A stretch of 23,597 bases of DNA. Origin: Candidatus Pacearchaeota archaeon. GTDB taxonomy: Archaea; Nanobdellota; Nanobdellia; Pacearchaeales; GW2011-AR1. Every line of letters begins with the position of its first letter. The first letter of the stretch is position 1. The stretch covers positions 1 to 23,597 of the forward strand of contig JAGVWT010000006.1 in assembly GCA_018304175.1 (NCBI GenBank), given 5' to 3'. This document shows, one piece after another, positions 4,950 to 23,074 of the stretch. The notes beneath the pieces are model-generated. The model searched no databases. It saw only the letters and a program-made list of their open reading frames with translations, and was not told where the DNA came from. The translations under genes were made by a program, and so were the position numbers.

Positions 4950-6191
4950 TTATTTTTTAAAATTCAAAGAATCTTCTATTAGTTTCTTTGCTTTATTAAT
5001 GAGGCTTTCAGTTATAGTAAGTTTAATCTCACTCATTCGTCCTCCACGACCTTTCGAGATAATTTTGACATCAATTATTCCCAACATCATAAATTCATGT
5101 ATGATATCATTAACTCTCCTCGAAGTAAGGACTTCAAAATTATTTTGGCTACAAAGCTTTTGGTAATGTCCATAAACTTCACCAGTGAAAACTGTTCCCT
5201 CCCTATTGTTATTCAACAAAGATTTCTGTGGTTTGTTTTTCCTTTCGGCTAAATTGATTATGGAGTAGAGGACGATTTGGAATTGTTTCGGGCTTGTACT
5301 TATAGTTTCCAATATTTTATCACGTTCAATCTTACTGTTTGCTTCATCAATATGTTTTATTGTAATTTTTTTGGAACCGTCCCTTTCAGATAATTCCCCG
5401 GCAATTCTTAACAAGTCCAATGCACGCCTAGCATCACCATGTTCTCTCGCTGCAAATCCCGCACATTTTTCAATAACACCTTCTTGCATAACGCCCTGTT
5501 TAAAAACCTCTTTAGACCTCATTTTCAAAATTTCCCTAAGCTGGACTGCATTATAAGGGGGAAAAACTATCTCTTCCTCTGACAAAGAACTTTTAACCCT
5601 AGGGTCTATATTATCAAGAAAAGTTAAATCATTGCTTATCCCAACAACGCTTAATCTTGTTTTTGAAAGCTCTGAATTGAGTCTTGTTAGGTTATACAAA
5701 AAATTATCAGATATTTTCTTGACTGTTTGATCTATTTCATCTAAGATTAACACAACCAGTTGTTTTTCAGAATCAATCAGTTCTATGAATTTGTTATAAA
5801 CTGACTCTGTAGGTAAACCTGTCGCAGGAATATTTCCTCCAAGCTTTTTTATCAACTCAGCTAAAATTCTGTACTCTGTATCAGAAACTTTTTTCAATTT
5901 GCAGTTGACATATTCTATCCTCAATTTAAAATCAGACCCTTCCTTTACACGATTTATTAAATTTTTTTGTATGTATTGTATTGAAAGAGTTTTTCCTGTT
6001 CCTGTTTTTCCATAAAGGAATAAATTACTTGGTTTTTCGCCCCTAAGAACTGGCGCCAATATAGAAGCTATTTGTTTAATCTCATTATCCCTGTACAGAA
6101 TTTCCTTTGGTACATAGTTCGTCTGAAGAATTGATTTGTCTCTAAATATTACATTTTTACTAAAAGATTCGAAGATACTGTCTAATTCCAT
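4950..6191 (-). CDS. cdc6: Orc1/Cdc6 replication initiator
   Basis: Walker A GKTGTGKT, Walker B LDEID, sensor-2 HGDARRALDLL, C-terminal winged helix (KGRGGR); GGAGG-type RBS just upstream. Confidence 0.97.
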   Translation of the reverse strand: MELDSIFESFSKNVIFRDKSILQTNYVPKEILYRDNEIKQIASILAPVLRGEKPSNLFLYGKTGTGKTLSIQYIQKNLINRVKEGSDFKLRIEYVNCKLKKVSDTEYRILAELIKKLGGNIPATGLPTESVYNKFIELIDSEKQLVVLILDEIDQTVKKISDNFLYNLTRLNSELSKTRLSVVGISNDLTFLDNIDPRVKSSLSEEEIVFPPYNAVQLREILKMRSKEVFKQGVMQEGVIEKCAGFAAREHGDARRALDLLRIAGELSERDGSKKITIKHIDEANSKIERDKILETISTSPKQFQIVLYSIINLAERKNKPQKSLLNNNREGTVFTGEVYGHYQKLCSQNNFEVLTSRRVNDIIHEFMMLGIIDVKIISKGRGGRMSEIKLTITESLINKAKKLIEDSLNFKK

Positions 6192-6310
6192 TTTGAATAT
6201 AAATTTTCCTCCTTTTTATTTGAAATTTTTTCTCGCTTTTCACCTCAACTTTGTTTTTAAACATTTTACTTATTAAATTTTAGTTGAGTTGAAGTTTTTA
6301 CTTAAACTAT

Positions 6311-6331
6311 CACCTCTATTTCCTATAGAGG
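6311..6331 (-). promoter_or_regulatory. ORB-like box (degenerate)
   Basis: Minus strand CCTCTATAGGAAATAGAGGTG, 14/21 identical to the box at 8660-8680; also an 8-bp inverted repeat (6312-6319/6325-6332). Confidence 0.5.
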
Positions 6332-6415
6332 TACATAAAATAAAAAACTTTCAGACGGTTTAGAATGAATTAAGTATAAAAAAGGTTATAACTACTAACA
6401 AAGAATAAACCTGTT

Positions 6416-6429
6416 TTTCCTATGGAAAT
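6416..6429 (-). promoter_or_regulatory. mini-ORB-like box
   Basis: Minus strand ATTTCCATAGGAAA with a TTTCC-N3-GGAAA dyad; identical over 14 bp to 8659-8672; no G-string. Confidence 0.6.
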
Positions 6430-6479
6430 TTGTTTTTGTGAAACTTGTTTTTGTAGACCTACAGAAAACTAGTTTGTGG

Positions 6480-6544
6480 AAAACTGTTTTTATGGGTTAG
6501 TAGAAGAGGTGTAGGTCAGTAAAAACTGTTTTTATGGGTTAGTA
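6480..6544 (+). repeat. 23-bp perfect direct repeat, 2 copies, 42-bp period
   Basis: AAAACTGTTTTTATGGGTTAGTA at 6480-6502 and 6522-6544. Confidence 0.95.
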
Positions 6545-6671
6545 TTTTTGTTATAAGATATTTTAAAATGTTTTTAGATATAAATACTACAACCTAGAAA
6601 GATACTCATATATAATATATAAAATACAAAAATATATTTAGATTGGGTGTTATGATATATAAAAAATATAA

Positions 6672-6720
6672 TATATAGTATAGTATATAGTATAGTATAG
6701 TATATAGTATAGTATATATA
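6672..6720 (+). repeat. TATAG/TATATAG tandem array in the AT-rich core (candidate DNA-unwinding element)
   Basis: tatatag-tatag-tatatag-tatag-tatag-tatatag-tatag-tatatata. Confidence 0.85.
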
Positions 6721-6772
6721 ATTTTATAAATAAATAATAAATATAAAAAATTTGTGATTTTCTTTTTAAATC

Positions 6773-6793
6773 TTTCTACAAGAAACAAAGGAG
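6773..6793 (+). promoter_or_regulatory. ORB-like box (degenerate)
   Basis: TTTCTACAAGAAACAAAGGAG, 16/21 identical to 8660-8680; opposite orientation to the boxes at 6311 and 6416. Confidence 0.55.
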
Positions 6794-6895
6794 AGAGAAT
6801 ATAACCGGAAAGAGAGAGTATAAAGGGAATTAACTCTTTCTTTCAAACCACTTAAATTTTTACTTTATGTCTCTTTTTTAATGTATATTCATTTT

Positions 6896-6913
6896 TACAG
6901 AAAAATTTATAAG
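6896..6913 (+). promoter_or_regulatory. BRE-TATA promoter of the PRC-barrel gene
   Basis: TACAGAAAAATTTATAAG (purine-rich BRE plus TTTATAA); AGGTGA RBS at 6943-6948 before ATG 6959. Confidence 0.7.
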
Positions 6914-6958
6914 CAAGATATCTCTAAAATTAAATAAAAACAAGGTGATTTTTACAAA

Positions 6959-7216
6959 ATGCCAGAAAGGAACCCATATACATCGCTTGCAGGGAAAATG
7001 ATTGTAACAAAAGAAGGTAAAAGAATGGGGTTTGTTAAAGACCTTACTTTTGAAACAGGTTCTGGAGAAGTGATAAATATTATTGTTAAAGATTCAACAC
7101 TCTACACAAAGAACCTTAATTTGGAAAAAACAAACTCAAACGAGATGCTTATTCCCTACAATTCAATAATTGCTGTTGGCGATTTTATAGTTGTTTCAGA
7201 GGAAGATTTAATATAA
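6959..7216 (+). CDS. Small PRC-barrel domain protein (CdpB-like size)
   Basis: GKMIVTKEGKRMGFVKDLTFETGSGEVINIIV...LIPYNSIIAVGDFIVV matches the PRC-barrel pattern; good RBS. Confidence 0.8.
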   Translation: MPERNPYTSLAGKMIVTKEGKRMGFVKDLTFETGSGEVINIIVKDSTLYTKNLNLEKTNSNEMLIPYNSIIAVGDFIVVSEEDLI

Positions 7217-7235
7217 AGGGAGAATTCTTATCAAA

Positions 7236-7418
7236 ATGGTTGAAAATGACGCAAGACTTAATGTAAGGTATTATGAATTAATAGGTGAATTAATAGGTGA
7301 ATTAATAGGTGAATTAATAGGTGAATTAATAGGTAAATCAACAAAAGAAAGTGCTTCTTCTTCCACCCAGAAACAACTAATAAACAAAAATTTAAAAATG
7401 CCTTTTCTTAATAAGTAA
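7236..7418 (+). CDS. Possible 60-aa protein containing (ELIG)x5
   Basis: Fills the gap between two genes with operon-like spacing (stop 1 nt before next ATG); no recognisable family. Confidence 0.3.
   Translation: MVENDARLNVRYYELIGELIGELIGELIGELIGKSTKESASSSTQKQLINKNLKMPFLNK
7275..7334 (+). repeat. 12-bp perfect tandem repeat x5
   Basis: GAATTAATAGGT at 7275, 7287, 7299, 7311 and 7323. Confidence 0.98.
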
Positions 7419-7419
7419 A

Positions 7420-7830
7420 ATGAAAGTAATAGGTTTCAACTTTAACAAAATCAGTGTTGAGAAGAAGTCAGATAAGTTTGAGAATATGAAGATACATAAC
7501 GATATCTCTATAGCCAGTGTTAAGCAAATAAAGTCGCAAAGCCCATTTCAGACAAAAGACGACATTTTAGAGCTGGGTTTTAATTATGACTTGACTTACT
7601 CTCCAGACATTGCAAAAATTTCCCTTTCTGGAACAATGATTCTCATGGTTGAACAAAAAGTGACAAAAGAGTTTATGAAAAGGTGGAAAAATAAAAAAGT
7701 CCCTGAAGAATACAAAATATTGATATTTAATGTTATACTTAAAAAATCAAACCTTCGCGCAGTCCAGCTTGAAGACGAGTTGAACATTCCAATACATATC
7801 CCTCTTCCTACTGCAAGGGATAGCAAATAA
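7420..7830 (+). CDS. Hypothetical protein, possible SecB-like fold
   Basis: 136 aa, beta-rich N-terminal part, then a helix ending in NIPIHIPLP, which recalls the SecB C-terminal P-rich motif. CDS is solid; fold is tentative. Confidence 0.55.
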   Translation: MKVIGFNFNKISVEKKSDKFENMKIHNDISIASVKQIKSQSPFQTKDDILELGFNYDLTYSPDIAKISLSGTMILMVEQKVTKEFMKRWKNKKVPEEYKILIFNVILKKSNLRAVQLEDELNIPIHIPLPTARDSK

Positions 7831-11112: not shown

Positions 11113-11223
11113 ATGACAAGGGGAACAGCGCGCGATAAGGCATTGGAAAAAATTGTCCAGCATCTTGAAGAAATTTTGCAAATTCCTGGAGATGATCCAA
11201 GATACAAGGAGTTTCTAAAATGA
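11113..11223 (+). CDS. 36-aa ORF coupled to the recombinase
   Basis: MTRGTARDKALEKIVQHLEEILQIPGDDPRYKEFLK; purine-rich AGAGGG upstream; its TGA overlaps the recombinase ATG (ATGA). Confidence 0.55.
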   Translation: MTRGTARDKALEKIVQHLEEILQIPGDDPRYKEFLK

Positions 11224-11981
11224 CAAAACCACTCGCAGCAATTTACATTCGTGTTTCGACAGAAGATCAAGCGAAACAGGGAATCTCGCTTTCAGCCCAA
11301 GAAGAAGCGCTGAAAAACTACGCCTCTGCATTGGGTTACGAAGTTTTGAAAATTTACAAAGATGAAGGAAAATCCGCAAAAGACATCAAAGGTCGGCAGG
11401 CAATGAAAGAAATGCTTGAAGACGCAAAAGTGAGAAAATTTCAGGCGATTTTCACATACAAGCTTGATAGATTTTCGAGAAGTTTAAAGGATTTGATTGA
11501 AACAATCGCGTTATTGAAAGATTGGGGAATTGATTTTGTTTCCCTTCAGGATAAAATTGAAACAACATCTGCGTCAGGAAAGCTAATGTTTCACATTATT
11601 TCTGCTTTCGCTGAATTTGAAAGAAACGTAACAGGAGAAAGAACTAAATTTTCAATGGACAAAAAAGCCCGCGACGGAGGTTTGGTTTCTCGTGCACCTT
11701 TAGGATACAAAATCGAGGACAAAAAACTAATTCCAAAAGAAGATTCCTACATGGTTCAGGAAATTTTCCAGGATTTTTTAAACAACAACACAAGTCTAAC
11801 ACAATTGGCAAAAAAATACAATTTAAGTGTCAATGGTTTGAAAAAAGTTCTAACAAATCAAACATATCTCGGGAAAATAAAATTCGACGGTCAAACTCAC
11901 CCAGGAACGCACCAACCTCTTCTTTCCCCAACACTTTTCAATCATGTTCAGAATAAGTTGGAGAAATTAAGGATTAAATAA
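11220..11981 (+). CDS. Serine recombinase (catalytic domain + recombinase domain, no zinc ribbon)
   Basis: YIRVST with catalytic Ser, DEGKSA, KLDRFSRS, AFAEFER, APLGY; 253 aa. Confidence 0.93.
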   Translation: MTKPLAAIYIRVSTEDQAKQGISLSAQEEALKNYASALGYEVLKIYKDEGKSAKDIKGRQAMKEMLEDAKVRKFQAIFTYKLDRFSRSLKDLIETIALLKDWGIDFVSLQDKIETTSASGKLMFHIISAFAEFERNVTGERTKFSMDKKARDGGLVSRAPLGYKIEDKKLIPKEDSYMVQEIFQDFLNNNTSLTQLAKKYNLSVNGLKKVLTNQTYLGKIKFDGQTHPGTHQPLLSPTLFNHVQNKLEKLRIK

Positions 11982-11984
11982 AAC

Positions 11985-12734
11985 TTACTTCATCCTAAAA
12001 ACAGCTGTTACACTCGCTGTGACTTCTTGGTCAGTTGGGGTTATGCTCGTGGATTCCTTCGCTGCACCCACGTCTCTTCCTGTTTCAGAAACAAAAACTT
12101 GCCATGGTTGGTAGTAGAAATCACTCGTTGAAATTGAAACCAAATTTCCTAATTCATTTCCAGAACCCTCAGCAAGAGCTTCTGCTTTTGCCTTTGCATC
12201 CTGCGTCGCCATCTTTATTGCTTCGGCCTTGTAGAAATTTTCATTTCCTTGGCTCAACTCGAAATTTATATAGCTGATTCCGGCTCCAGCATTTACTCCT
12301 GCGTCAATGACCCTGCCGATTTTACTTTTATCTTCTGCAGAAACTTCAATTTTTATCAAATGATAAGCAACATATCTCGTTACCTTAGGAGTTGAACCTG
12401 AATAATCATACTCTGGATAAATGCTGAAGCTCTGCGTTTTTATTTCATCTTTCTCGTAGCCTTCTGTCTCAAAAATATTCTTCATTGAGGTAACAATGTC
12501 TGCGTTTTTACTGCTTGCTTCAGAACTTGTTTCTCCATAAGTCTGTACTGTGAAATAAACAGAAACTAAATCAGGCATGACTTTTATCGATGCAAAACCA
12601 TTTGAGCTTATTGTATTAGATAAACCGGTAGAATTCATGTAAAGAATTCCGATAAGTGATACTAAAACAATTCCTGAAACAATTATTAATGTTATTAAAA
12701 CAGAATCGCTTATTTTTTTCATAGAATAAGACAT
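11985..12734 (-). CDS. SIMPL (DUF541) domain protein with N-terminal membrane anchor
   Basis: N-terminal TM helix, ISSNGFASIKVMPD..., AIKMATQDAKAKAEALA...LGNLVSIS, C-terminal VTASVTAVF. Confidence 0.85.
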   Translation of the reverse strand: MSYSMKKISDSVLITLIIVSGIVLVSLIGILYMNSTGLSNTISSNGFASIKVMPDLVSVYFTVQTYGETSSEASSKNADIVTSMKNIFETEGYEKDEIKTQSFSIYPEYDYSGSTPKVTRYVAYHLIKIEVSAEDKSKIGRVIDAGVNAGAGISYINFELSQGNENFYKAEAIKMATQDAKAKAEALAEGSGNELGNLVSISTSDFYYQPWQVFVSETGRDVGAAKESTSITPTDQEVTASVTAVFRMK

Positions 12735-12760: not shown

Positions 12761-13060
12761 TTAATTCTTACTATGTTTGCTATGTAGGTTATGCTCATAC
12801 TTGCTCATGCTTTTTTCCAATTTTCTAAATGGGAAAGGTCTTTTGTTAGATACAAATATTATATATCTCTGGAAAATATACCATTGAGTGTTCCAGATTT
12901 CACTTAGTTCCGCAACTTCTTTCAATCTTCTTCCAGCAAACAAAGTGAAGAAGAAATTTATCACGATTAAGACTGTTACAAACCATTTCCAAACAGATAA
13001 AATAATTCCAGATACGATTGTAACAATAATCCTCATCAATGCTTCTATTCTTTCTCCCAT
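12761..13060 (-). CDS. Small membrane protein, DUF4389-like
   Basis: Likely ATG at 13060 (MGERIEAL); two hydrophobic helices, then YIIFVSNKRPFPF. Confidence 0.65.
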   Translation of the reverse strand: MGERIEALMRIIVTIVSGIILSVWKWFVTVLIVINFFFTLFAGRRLKEVAELSEIWNTQWYIFQRYIIFVSNKRPFPFRKLEKSMSKYEHNLHSKHSKN

Positions 13061-13090
13061 GATTATGATATACAAAAATAATTTTTAAAA

Positions 13091-13117
13091 CTACCTTAAT
13101 GACTTCTGCCTCTTTCT
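13091..13117 (-). repeat. Degenerate duplicate of the last 8 codons + stop of rps9
   Basis: 20/27 nt identical to 13145-13171, 54-bp period; encodes RKRQKSLR* versus RKRQKSFR*. Confidence 0.8.
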
Positions 13118-13144
13118 TTCGGACGACATCACCACAGCGTTTAT

Positions 13145-13549
13145 TTATCTAAATGACTTTTGACGCTTCCTTCTTGCCTTACTATCTCCTGGCTTGTAAG
13201 TTTCCTTTCTTCTAACATCTGCAACTAACAAACTTCTATCATATCTTAAAAAAGCCTCTATCAAATCTTTTGAATTTGAAAATTTTACTATTGCTCTAGC
13301 CAAAGCAAGCCTTGCCGCTTCAATCTGGCTTTTATTTCCTCCTCCCTTCACATTTATATTAACATCAAAATCAGTATTCCCAATAATATTTTTTGCAATT
13401 CTTAACGGCTCCTCAATTTTAAGTTTGTCAAAGAAATGCAGAGTGTTGTAATCAATTCTGTTGATTTTTACTTTTCCAGAACCCCCTATCAATACAGCTC
13501 TTGCAATAGCTCTTTTTCTTTTTCCTGATGTGACTATTTTACTTTCCAT
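13145..13549 (-). CDS. rps9: 30S ribosomal protein uS9
   Basis: SGKRKRAIARA, VKGGG, AARLALARA, YDRSLLVADVRRKE, C-terminal RQKSFR; likely ATG at 13549. Confidence 0.97.
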   Translation of the reverse strand: MESKIVTSGKRKRAIARAVLIGGSGKVKINRIDYNTLHFFDKLKIEEPLRIAKNIIGNTDFDVNINVKGGGNKSQIEAARLALARAIVKFSNSKDLIEAFLRYDRSLLVADVRRKETYKPGDSKARRKRQKSFR

Positions 13550-15024: not shown

Positions 15025-15543
15025 TTATAAAATGTTTTGTTTCCTAATCTCCATAATTTTAAACAACATCTCATCAATCATTCTCTCTGGATTTGAATCA
15101 TCTGTATTAACGACAATGTTTGCGTGTTTTTTAAAAAGACCTTCTCTTTCTAAAAAAATGTCTTGAATACTTTTGTCCTGCAGGCCAACAATCCCTCTTA
15201 CCTTGAGATTACTGAGCCCATTCATCACCACATTCAAATTTGCCTCTAAAAAAATAACTACAGAAATTTCTTTTAACAGGGCCATTGCCTTTTCCGAATA
15301 AATCACACTACCTCCGGGAGATATCACAGAATTTTTCACATCTTTTAATTTTATAATCTCTTTTTCTTCCAAATCAATAAACTTTTCAGGGCCTAATGAA
15401 TCTAACAATTCCTGAAGGCTTTTAGAATTATTTCCTTCCATTATTTTGTCTATATCCAAAAAAGAAAGATTTAGTTTTCTAGCTAGCTTTTCTCCCAAAA
15501 AACTTTTTCCAACTCCGGGCATCCCAATTAATGTTACATTCAT
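15025..15543 (-). CDS. aroK: Bacterial-type (P-loop) shikimate kinase-like protein
   Basis: True start ATG at 15543 (the ORF-track extension runs across a tRNA); LIGMPGVGKS, FLDID, SPGGSVIY, VIFLE, LERE. Confidence 0.75.
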   Translation of the reverse strand: MNVTLIGMPGVGKSFLGEKLARKLNLSFLDIDKIMEGNNSKSLQELLDSLGPEKFIDLEEKEIIKLKDVKNSVISPGGSVIYSEKAMALLKEISVVIFLEANLNVVMNGLSNLKVRGIVGLQDKSIQDIFLEREGLFKKHANIVVNTDDSNPERMIDEMLFKIMEIRKQNIL

Positions 15544-15548
15544 AGTAA

Positions 15549-15632
15549 TGCAGGAGAGAGGATTCGAACCTCTGAACCTACTAAAGGACGGGATCTTGAG
15601 TCCCGCGCGTTTGACCACTTCGCTACTCCTGC
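15549..15632 (-). tRNA. tRNA-Leu(CAA)
   Basis: GCAGGAG/CTCCTGC acceptor stem, anticodon arm CGGGA-CTCAAGA-TCCCG, long variable arm, GGTTCGAATCC T-arm; CCA not encoded. Confidence 0.96.
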
Positions 15633-15684
15633 TTGAGTTTAGTAAAAAACAAAGATTTAAAAATCCTCTCGATTTCAAAAAAAT

Positions 15685-15796
15685 AAGACGGCCATAGTGG
15701 ATTGGAAACACCTGTTCCCTTTCCGAACACAGAAGTTAAGCTTTCCACGTTGGTAGTGCTAGTGTCTGAAGAGATGCGAACCTATCAAGCTGTCTT
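15685..15796 (+). rRNA. rrf: 5S rRNA (stand-alone)
   Basis: Helix I AAGACGGC/GCTGTCTT; conserved CCTTTCCGAACACAGAAGTTAAGC segment; about 112 nt. Confidence 0.92.
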
Positions 15797-15832
15797 GCCT
15801 AATTTTATAAAATCTTTTTACATAATACCAGA

Positions 15833-22833: not shown

Positions 22834-22897
22834 TGTTTCGAAGAAACACGCGCTGAAAAAATCCCTGATTTTTTCTATGCCAAATAAAGATTAATGT

Positions 22898-22971
22898 GCC
22901 CTCGTAGCTCAGCTGGATAGAGCATCAGGTTCCTAACCTGAGGGTCGCAGGTTCAAATCCTGTCGAGGGCA
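22898..22971 (+). tRNA. tRNA-Arg(CCT)
   Basis: GCCCTCG/CGAGGGC-A; anticodon arm TCAGG-TTCCTAA-CCTGA. Confidence 0.96.
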
Positions 22972-23049
22972 TTTCAGATTTGAACTAATAAATCGGTTTA
23001 AACGAATTAGGAAGGGGTTAGTGTAAGGGGAAACGTAGTTGCCCCTCAT

Positions 23050-23074
23050 GGTTCAAATCCTGTCGAGGGCATTT
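23050..23074 (+). repeat. 25-bp exact duplicate of the tRNA-Arg 3' end (att-like)
   Basis: GGTTCAAATCCTGTCGAGGGCATTT at 22950-22974 and 23050-23074. Confidence 0.93.

Follow-up and report, generated by a model that had tools for sequence, protein, structure and literature searches.

The rps9 locus

The stretch of DNA analysed here (the window) is a whole contig of 23.6 kb (23,597 nucleotides) from a Pacearchaeota-type DPANN archaeon, the assembly of which amounts to 544 kb with 33% GC and is 87.7% complete. The gene for ribosomal protein uS9 (rps9) is the terminal gene of an L18e-L13-S9 block in this contig, and its stop codon is followed by a second version of the gene's own end. The features of the region, in order of their coordinates, are:

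11220-11981, plus strand: serine recombinase, 253 aa (Pfam: Resolvase and a weak Recombinase domain), convergent with the rps9 block
11985-12734: SIMPL-family gene, beyond the DUF4389 gene
12761-13060, minus strand: gene for a small DUF4389 membrane protein, 99 aa (PF14333 on the gene calls of same-population contigs)
13061-13090, minus strand: AT-rich spacer with the TATA-like TTTTAAAAA, directly after the TAG of copy 2
13091-13117, minus strand: copy 2, the stranded tail, AGA AAG AGG CAG AAG TCA TTA AGG TAG (RKRQKSLR and stop)
13112-13129, minus strand: pseudo-start, ATG TCG TCC GAA AGA AAG, resembling the first DUF4389 codons
13130-13144, minus strand: spacer of 15 nt, ATAAACGCTGTGGTG, for which no kin was found
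13145-13171, minus strand: copy 1, the working tail, AGG AAG CGT CAA AAG TCA TTT AGA TAA (RKRQKSFR and stop)
13145-13549, minus strand: rps9 (uS9) coding sequence, an ORF call of 134 codons plus TAA; 134-aa protein with PF00380
13551-13943, minus strand: L13
13940-14308, minus strand: L18e

Homology of uS9 to the product of the window rps9 was found in 39 of 41 relatives, and the gene calls of same-population contigs agree. The closest uS9 outside the window population is 78% identical, and the window genome thus has no close relatives. A DUF4389 gene likewise lies directly downstream of rps9 in seven relatives (G010, G009, G014, G017, G104, G360 and G250; tblastn), and the AT-rich segment with the TATA-like box is its presumed promoter in the window.

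The serine recombinase gene lies 1.1 kb downstream of the tails, outside the repeats, and its homologues adjoin rps9 in many genera, whether or not the tail is duplicated there; we treat it as context only and claim no involvement. It is 78-82% identical to its copies in two other genomes (G022 and G012) whose uS9 is 62-69% identical, and because the recombinase is the more similar of the two proteins, it may move between genera. Many other genera have a lone C-terminal Recombinase domain in a gene of 150-180 aa that is convergent with rps9, sometimes stop to stop (loci L009, L014, L015, L037, L046 and others). At L037 a tyrosine recombinase adjoins the recombinase-domain gene. In G018 that gene has a zinc-finger-like N-terminus, and the region downstream of the tails (L046, G018:C2 4994-9835) contains a Fic-domain gene (motif HPWTDGNGRAARL), the recombinase-domain gene, three genes without assigned function and a XerC/D-like tyrosine recombinase. 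The region after rps9 is, in general, variable among genomes and rich in recombinases.

Some features elsewhere in the window may be recorded here. A 12-nt tandem repeat of about six units (TGAATTAATAGG; 7262-7341) and a TATAG-rich repeat (6667-6724) both lie within a stretch of 25% GC with a change in the sign of the GC skew (about 6000-7500). Genes for tRNA-Leu(CAA) (15549-15632, minus strand) and 5S rRNA (15684-15798, plus strand) stand back to back under a long, spurious-looking ORF (15025-15711), and the call of a shikimate-kinase-like gene nearby may start further in.

Two tails at one gene

The first-pass annotation had described a duplicate of the uS9 tail, in frame, right after the rps9 stop, and this description is exact (13145-13171 versus 13091-13117, the end coordinate being right for the pair). 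The 54 nt after the TAA of rps9 read, in the same frame, ATA AAC GCT GTG GTG ATG TCG TCC GAA AGA AAG AGG CAG AAG TCA TTA AGG TAG. As had been noted, the two copies differ at seven of 27 nt: six are third codon positions (TAA/TAG included) and the seventh is a first-position difference (CGT/AGG), such that F/L is the only change in the peptide. If positions 13118-13171 are deleted in silico, an intact uS9 reading that ends in SKARRKRQKSLR and a stop is left. The window thus has a direct repeat of the rps9 3' end while rps9 itself is complete.

The duplication is real and confined to this locus. A degenerate 27-nt pattern with up to three mismatches finds the two tail sites alone in the window (and none in 100 shuffles), and again just copies 1 and 2 in the entire 544-kb assembly. 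A blastn-short search of the genome with the 82-nt stretch returned no further copy longer than 14 nt, save one chance match of 22 nt. The genome search that the first-pass annotation proposed has accordingly been carried out, and the segment is not the dispersed repeat that would have spoken against its reading. A dispersed repeat or mini-element can also be set aside for the relatives: the spacers of g70 and g17, like the window segment, are confined to their own rps9 locus. Exactly these 54 nt are also present in four contigs that were assembled independently from the same population (ENA and Logan; identity 99.9-100%), which rules out an assembly artefact, as does the occurrence of the structure in several species. 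Among the protein genes of the window genome no other duplicated gene end was found in a scan of about 1200 ORF ends. The same scan turned up a near-perfect 48-nt tandem repeat of at least four units inside a coding region of another contig (C14, about 43.85-43.94 kb).

The codon pattern of the differences

The synonymous character of the differences is not peculiar to the window. With one genome taken per genus, the differences between copies 1 and 2 fall on codon positions 1, 2 and 3 in the numbers 9, 5 and 31 (P about 1e-6 against a uniform distribution and 0.008 against 0.5), which is not the codon-blind drift of a redundant copy that a tandem duplication would leave. Two relatives are particularly instructive. 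In G360, nine of 24 nt are changed, in seven codons, all synonymously, so that the peptides are identical; in G235, again nine of 24 nt are changed, in six codons and all synonymously, including Ser TCC/AGT and Arg CGT/AGA. Such recoding cannot be reached by free drift or by gene conversion, which makes copies alike. For the window, where six of the seven differences are silent, a hand estimate gives P of about 0.002-0.04 under free evolution in place, depending on the polarity taken from relatives.

On our reading, the differences are silent because each tail, prior to the joining, had been evolving as the end of a working gene; the copies must have diverged in different alleles or lineages, an origin that we infer from the codon pattern. 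Gene conversion of the kind seen in g130 (see below) could be a partial source of the synonymous bias. The first-pass annotation read the pattern as a signature of protein-level selection. The synonymous pattern is indeed real and general, but it reflects divergence before the joining and not selection on a product of copy 2. A further codon peculiarity belongs to copy 1, which has the rare codon CGT in five of 16 carriers of the duplication and in none of 37 non-duplicated relatives examined (Fisher about 0.0015 by our own estimate).

The segment between the tails

The 27 nt that separate the tails (48% GC) consist of two parts. The 15 nt next to the rps9 stop contain ACGCT, the reverse complement of AGCGT in copy 1; they have no second copy in the genome, no significant similarity to upstream rps9 and no related matches in metagenomes. 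The pseudo-start that follows resembles the DUF4389 starts of relatives, which read ATG TCG GAA AGA A in G360, ATG AGC GAG AGA AAA GAA (MSERKE) in G010 and ...GAA AGA AAG GAA GCA in G250, and about ten informative nucleotides suggest, without proving it, that a DUF4389 gene once began here. The segment closes with AGAAAG (6-7 nt), which overlaps copy 2 and provides a microhomology with the rps9 tail (AGA AAG AGG). Two head-to-tail units meet at AGAAAG, a sequence common to the DUF4389 start and the rps9 tail, as in a tandem duplication. Their intergenic parts are unrelated, however, one being 15 relatively GC-rich nucleotides and the other 30 AT-rich ones, and the window spacer has no similarity to upstream rps9 (z -1.5), so that the units are not homologous over their full length. 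Considering these two facts, the two junctions were already distinct when they were joined. Searches of genome and metagenome collections with patterns for the donor-type junction, for the copy-1 tail plus spacer and for the spacer 18-mer found nothing related.

Recurrence in the family

The first-pass annotation had proposed an inspection of the region downstream of rps9 in related genomes, and this shows that tandem tails recur. We searched 401 genomes of the same (Pacearchaeota-type) family with a strict pattern of two tails separated by 20-50 nt. Tandem uS9 tails were found in about 15 of the 401, in 11 genera, and none with a reversed-pattern control; the survey also gave two low-complexity false positives. 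The carriers are G000; G018, G364, G275; G227, G073; G175; G360; G235; G250, G133; G170; G378, G182; and G415. Beyond the survey, degenerate copies were found in G215 and G382, and a further carrier is G480. The periods of the tandem tails are 52-71 nt, and no genuine tail pair occurs in the 401 genomes at gaps of 51-81 nt, nor any at periods of 41-51 nt. Among 45 genomes of other families of the order there are no tandem tails, in a sample too small to show absence. A limited literature search found no earlier report of the recurrence, the narrow size or the recoded copies across this DPANN family.

Carriers are scattered on a quick, weakly resolved tree of uS9 and L13. Spacers are homologous within genera and also between g70 and g89, g179 and g167, and g130 and g38, and are otherwise unrelated; each is found only at the rps9 locus of its own genome, so that they are not dispersed elements. 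No local template was found for any spacer; a comparison with upstream rps9 shows that the g130 spacer was clearly copied from codons of that gene (z about 5).

The second tail can change or disappear. In g130, copies 1 and 2 are identical within each species, whereas the species differ from one another at about ten of 36 positions and have the spacer in common, which points to gene conversion. The second tail of G382 is decayed, with indels and stops, and G313 and G399 are without one. Finally, G340, the sister of G364, has a single tail made up of the 5' part of G364 copy 1 and the 3' part and flank of copy 2, which argues that the duplication is lost by recombination between the copies.

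Three genomes have perfect arrays of at least 3-4 units of 59 nt or 65 nt, each unit with a uS9 tail: G227 (L047, G227:C6 21104-21245), G073 (L048, G073:C7 19681-19977) and G175 (L051, G175:C2 49874-50176). Runs of N break the arrays in two assemblies, and the unit numbers are lower bounds.

Origin of the second tail

Which of the two ends is the older one? In G010, the working tail (AGA AAA AGG CAG AAG TCA TTT AGG TAG) is followed at once by TTTTATAAAA, and the order of copy 2 and TTTTAAAAA in the window mirrors this order of TAG and TTTTATAAAA at a working rps9 stop. In addition, copy 2 is closer than copy 1 to working tails of relatives, matching 25 of 27 nt in G010 and 22 of 27 in G002 of the same genus (20 and 18 of 27, respectively, for copy 1). 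Third-position identity between the window genome and four relatives is about 0.5 in a sliding-window comparison of rps9, a sign that synonymous sites are near saturation, which would mask a mosaic rps9 with an imported 3' part. The polarity with copy 2 as the ancestral tail therefore rests mainly on synteny. On these grounds, it looks like copy 2 and its downstream flank represent the earlier end, with copy 1 and the 27 nt as the addition.

We consider it probable (about 0.55) that copy 2 is an untranslated relic of an earlier rps9 3' end, left behind by a recombination event that supplied a new end. The earlier end would still be joined to the TATA-like box and the DUF4389 gene, as these follow the rps9 stop in relatives. 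Recombination would have put 54 nt ahead of it: first copy 1, a synonymously diverged rps9 tail that ends in a stop of its own, then 15 intergenic nucleotides of foreign origin, and last the opening codons of a DUF4389 gene. The event was most likely an unequal or illegitimate crossover of two diverged rps9-DUF4389 junctions at AGAAAG, where the DUF4389 sequence GAA AGA AAG and the rps9 sequence AGA AAG coincide; the placement of the junction at this point is an inferred one. Such an event is harmless because the gene keeps a complete end. The stranded copy would then drift, would sometimes be converted by copy 1, and would finally be lost through recombination between the copies.

Among the options put forward in the first-pass annotation, the stranded 3' end of a displaced rps9 allele is thus the one that fits the data, in terms of synteny, synonymous divergence, recurrence, and loss or decay. 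Against it stands the fact that neither a donor allele nor any relative closer than 78% in uS9 identity was found.

Alternative explanations

One alternative is a plain in-place tandem duplication of the rps9/DUF4389 junction by slippage or at a microhomology, followed by drift and occasional conversion of copy 2 by copy 1. Such a duplication would be tolerated since the first copy retains the stop, and it fits both the head-to-tail layout with the AGAAAG microhomology and the perfect arrays of 59 and 65 nt. The concerted evolution in g130, with its spacer copied from rps9 codons, agrees with it as well. For the window, it is difficult to reconcile with intergenic parts that are unrelated (15 versus 30 nt) and a spacer unlike upstream rps9, and with copies that are 26% different and yet have at most one non-silent change in copy 2. 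The nearly maximal recoding in G360 and G235, with identical peptides and a switch of Ser codon class, argues against it, as does the lack of any other duplicated protein-gene end among the ORF ends of the genome. All told, we regard this explanation as unlikely.

Several features of the family, namely the narrow period, the pairing at the start of the spacer, the CGT of copy 1 and the conserved spacers of g130 and g17, hint at a mechanism or function beyond a one-off accident. The tandem tails may be the products or working parts of a process specific to this locus in the archaeal family, either an end-copying insertion with a ruler of about 60 nt (also at work at tRNA genes) or a 3' module under selection, whose anti-tail segment can pair with either of two identical tails. 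We take this broader proposal to be distinctly unlikely.

A site-specific integration scar is a third candidate. An element carrying its own gene end (attP) would have replaced the end of rps9 and displaced the host tail, and would later have been deleted down to 27 nt. There is a precedent in the streptococci, where ICEs and IMEs have repeatedly integrated at the rpsI 3' end; the direct repeats there can be long or short, elements accrete in tandem, and some have decayed (PMC5357655). Many genera have a serine recombinase, or its DNA-binding domain alone, immediately downstream of rps9 and convergent with it, the full-length recombinases are more alike between genera than uS9 is (see above), and many tRNA genes of the same genome have short inserts between duplicated gene ends. 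In no case, however, is an element or an integrase found between the tails, the gap being just 27 nt in the window, and the far-apart second tails checked on other contigs (G151, G159, G205, G379, G104 and G020) are chance matches in genes, such as one for a 398-aa ATPase. The periods of 52-71 nt are too uniform for remnants of random deletion, the identical core of the tails is just 8 nt (AAGTCATT), and the recombinase, itself not flanked by the repeats, occurs irrespective of tail duplication. An integration scar is thus very improbable.

The tRNA inserts just mentioned are worth a brief description. Downstream of tRNA-Arg(CCT) (22897-22972), a 75-nt insert with GGGGTTAGTGTAAGGGG...CCCCTCAT is followed by a perfect copy (23050-23074) of the last 25 nt of the tRNA. 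The GGGGTTAGTGTAAGGGG...CCCCTCAT element has at least 13 copies in the 544-kb genome (on G000 contigs C1, C4, C5, C12, C13, C14, C16 and C17, and at 22897-23074 of the window); most are at tRNA gene ends with an end duplicate of 13-25 nt, and one is intron-like inside a tRNA gene. The insert has no match in Rfam.

The second tail could also belong to a selected cis-acting 3' module. The sequence that comes right after the stop would pair either with the first tail or with the identical second one, which has a T-rich tract behind it. If true, such a module would tie the completion of rps9 translation to termination, to mRNA stability or to how the following gene is expressed. Relative to shuffles, the first 22 nt beyond the copy-1 stop are indeed more complementary to the copy-1 region in carriers (mean z -1.19, n=16) than in others (0.02, n=37), although the p value of 0.0007 (MWU) is overstated in that related genomes are not independent. 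The pairs AAGCGT/ACGCTT in G275, AAACGT/ACGTTT in G360 and AGCGT/ACGCT in the window look compensatory (AARCGT/ACGYTT), a T-rich tract usually follows copy 2, and the duplication persists across species in g17 and g130, where spacers are 75-82% identical compared with about 50-57% for the next 60 nt. On the other hand, the fold in the window is weak (-15.2 kcal/mol, z -1.14), the segments that pair are not the same from one species to the next, and sister species have lost the module or have it in decayed form. Both the module and its proposed coupling role appear very doubtful to us. A search of Rfam with 12950-13300 gave only sub-threshold chance matches and no known RNA family.

The first-pass annotation also raised the possibility of translation, either by read-through of the stop, giving an extended uS9 with the same final residues, or as a 12-aa peptide mimicking the tail (MSSERKRQKSLR). 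Copy 2 in the window is in the rps9 frame, an ATG is available at 13127-13129, and GGTGAT just 5' of it resembles a Shine-Dalgarno core, but this motif overlaps the ATG with zero spacing. Over the 16 other genomes and the window, the period is divisible by three in six of 17 cases, which is the chance level. An in-frame stop stands right before copy 2 in g17, g179 and G170 (GGC TAA AGA GCA..., GCA TAG AGA CAA...), and the ATG is present only in the window genome, with no start in G018, g17 or g179 and with G018 also out of frame. Moreover, the second tail decays (G382) or vanishes (G313, G399 and G340) in sister species, and programmed read-through of TAA is not known in archaea. Given the lack of conservation of frame or start, the in-frame stops and the decay or loss in relatives, the frame and the ATG in the window are incidental. 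Neither the read-through isoform nor the micropeptide is supported, each being extremely improbable, and copy 2 is most likely untranslated.

A few other candidates were dropped. Translational bypassing, as in T4 gene 60, came to mind with a gap of about 50-70 nt, a stop and a hairpin, and is unnecessary because copy 1 already completes the protein. CRISPR-like ectopic spacer integration was rejected, as no Cas1 (PF01867) was found in the 87.7%-complete assembly with positive controls, and the spacers of the G227 array, being identical, speak against it as well. Inspection by eye showed neither the boxes of a C/D-box RNA nor the staggered bulges of a bulge-helix-bulge intron, and both readings were dropped.

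Comparison with known systems

How does the rps9 double tail relate to known rearrangements of gene ends? By analogy, it works like displaced gene ends of the integration type and like junction tandem duplications. The streptococcal ICEs and IMEs at the 3' end of rpsI (PMC5357655) involve the same gene, keep a complete end and strand the earlier end downstream as a direct repeat, and they too have decayed and tandem forms. Unlike their attL/attR, the window has 27 nt between the repeats, with no element or integrase, in a DPANN host; unlike their repeats, those of the family have periods of 52-71 nt, and the window copies are 26% different with an 8-nt core.

Junction duplications by microhomology or slippage are alike in the repeat that runs from a gene end to the next start, in the microhomology joint and in being harmless by virtue of the first stop. 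They also share a variable copy number (G227, G073 and G175) and loss by recombination between copies (G340). Unlike them, the window has units that are not homologous throughout and tails that are recoded rather than decayed, and the phenomenon affects one gene in 11 genera. The double tail is a member of neither class, because it lacks a defining feature of each: an element enclosed by the repeats in the one case, and in the other, units that are homologous along their whole length and drift freely.

In naturally transformable bacteria, homology-facilitated illegitimate recombination proceeds from a homologous anchor and is completed at a microhomology joint. With the conserved rps9 as the anchor and AGAAAG as the joint, a process of this kind would import a short foreign stretch and could duplicate recipient sequence. 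It is not known from archaea of this group, no donor is at hand here, and the narrow length range is unpredicted by it.

The tRNA-gene inserts of the same genome likewise have the order gene end, insert and gene-end copy, with the gene intact. They differ in their GGGGTTAGTGTAAGGGG...CCCCTCAT core with at least 13 copies, whereas the rps9 spacer is unique and without that core.

Implications

The tail of uS9 contacts the P-site tRNA, and a second tail behind the stop invites the attractive idea of another uS9 isoform, or of a peptide mimicking the part that makes this contact. The present analysis does not support that idea and puts a concrete evolutionary reading in its place. It also shows that, in this family of ultra-small archaea, recombination has recurred at the boundary after the conserved L18e-L13-S9 block. 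The characteristic footprint is an additional gene end, recoded through synonymous changes, that lies 52-71 nt downstream of the first. Annotators could mistake this footprint for a small ORF or a read-through signal, and in evolutionary work on uncultured DPANN lineages it could serve to trace allele exchange.

The single locus in the window can be understood as an evolutionary scar, while the recurrence across the family, the narrow size and the recoding leave room for a dedicated mechanism. If the narrow length, the hairpin tendency and the CGT bias do reflect a dedicated mechanism or a regulatory module, it would be a new one.
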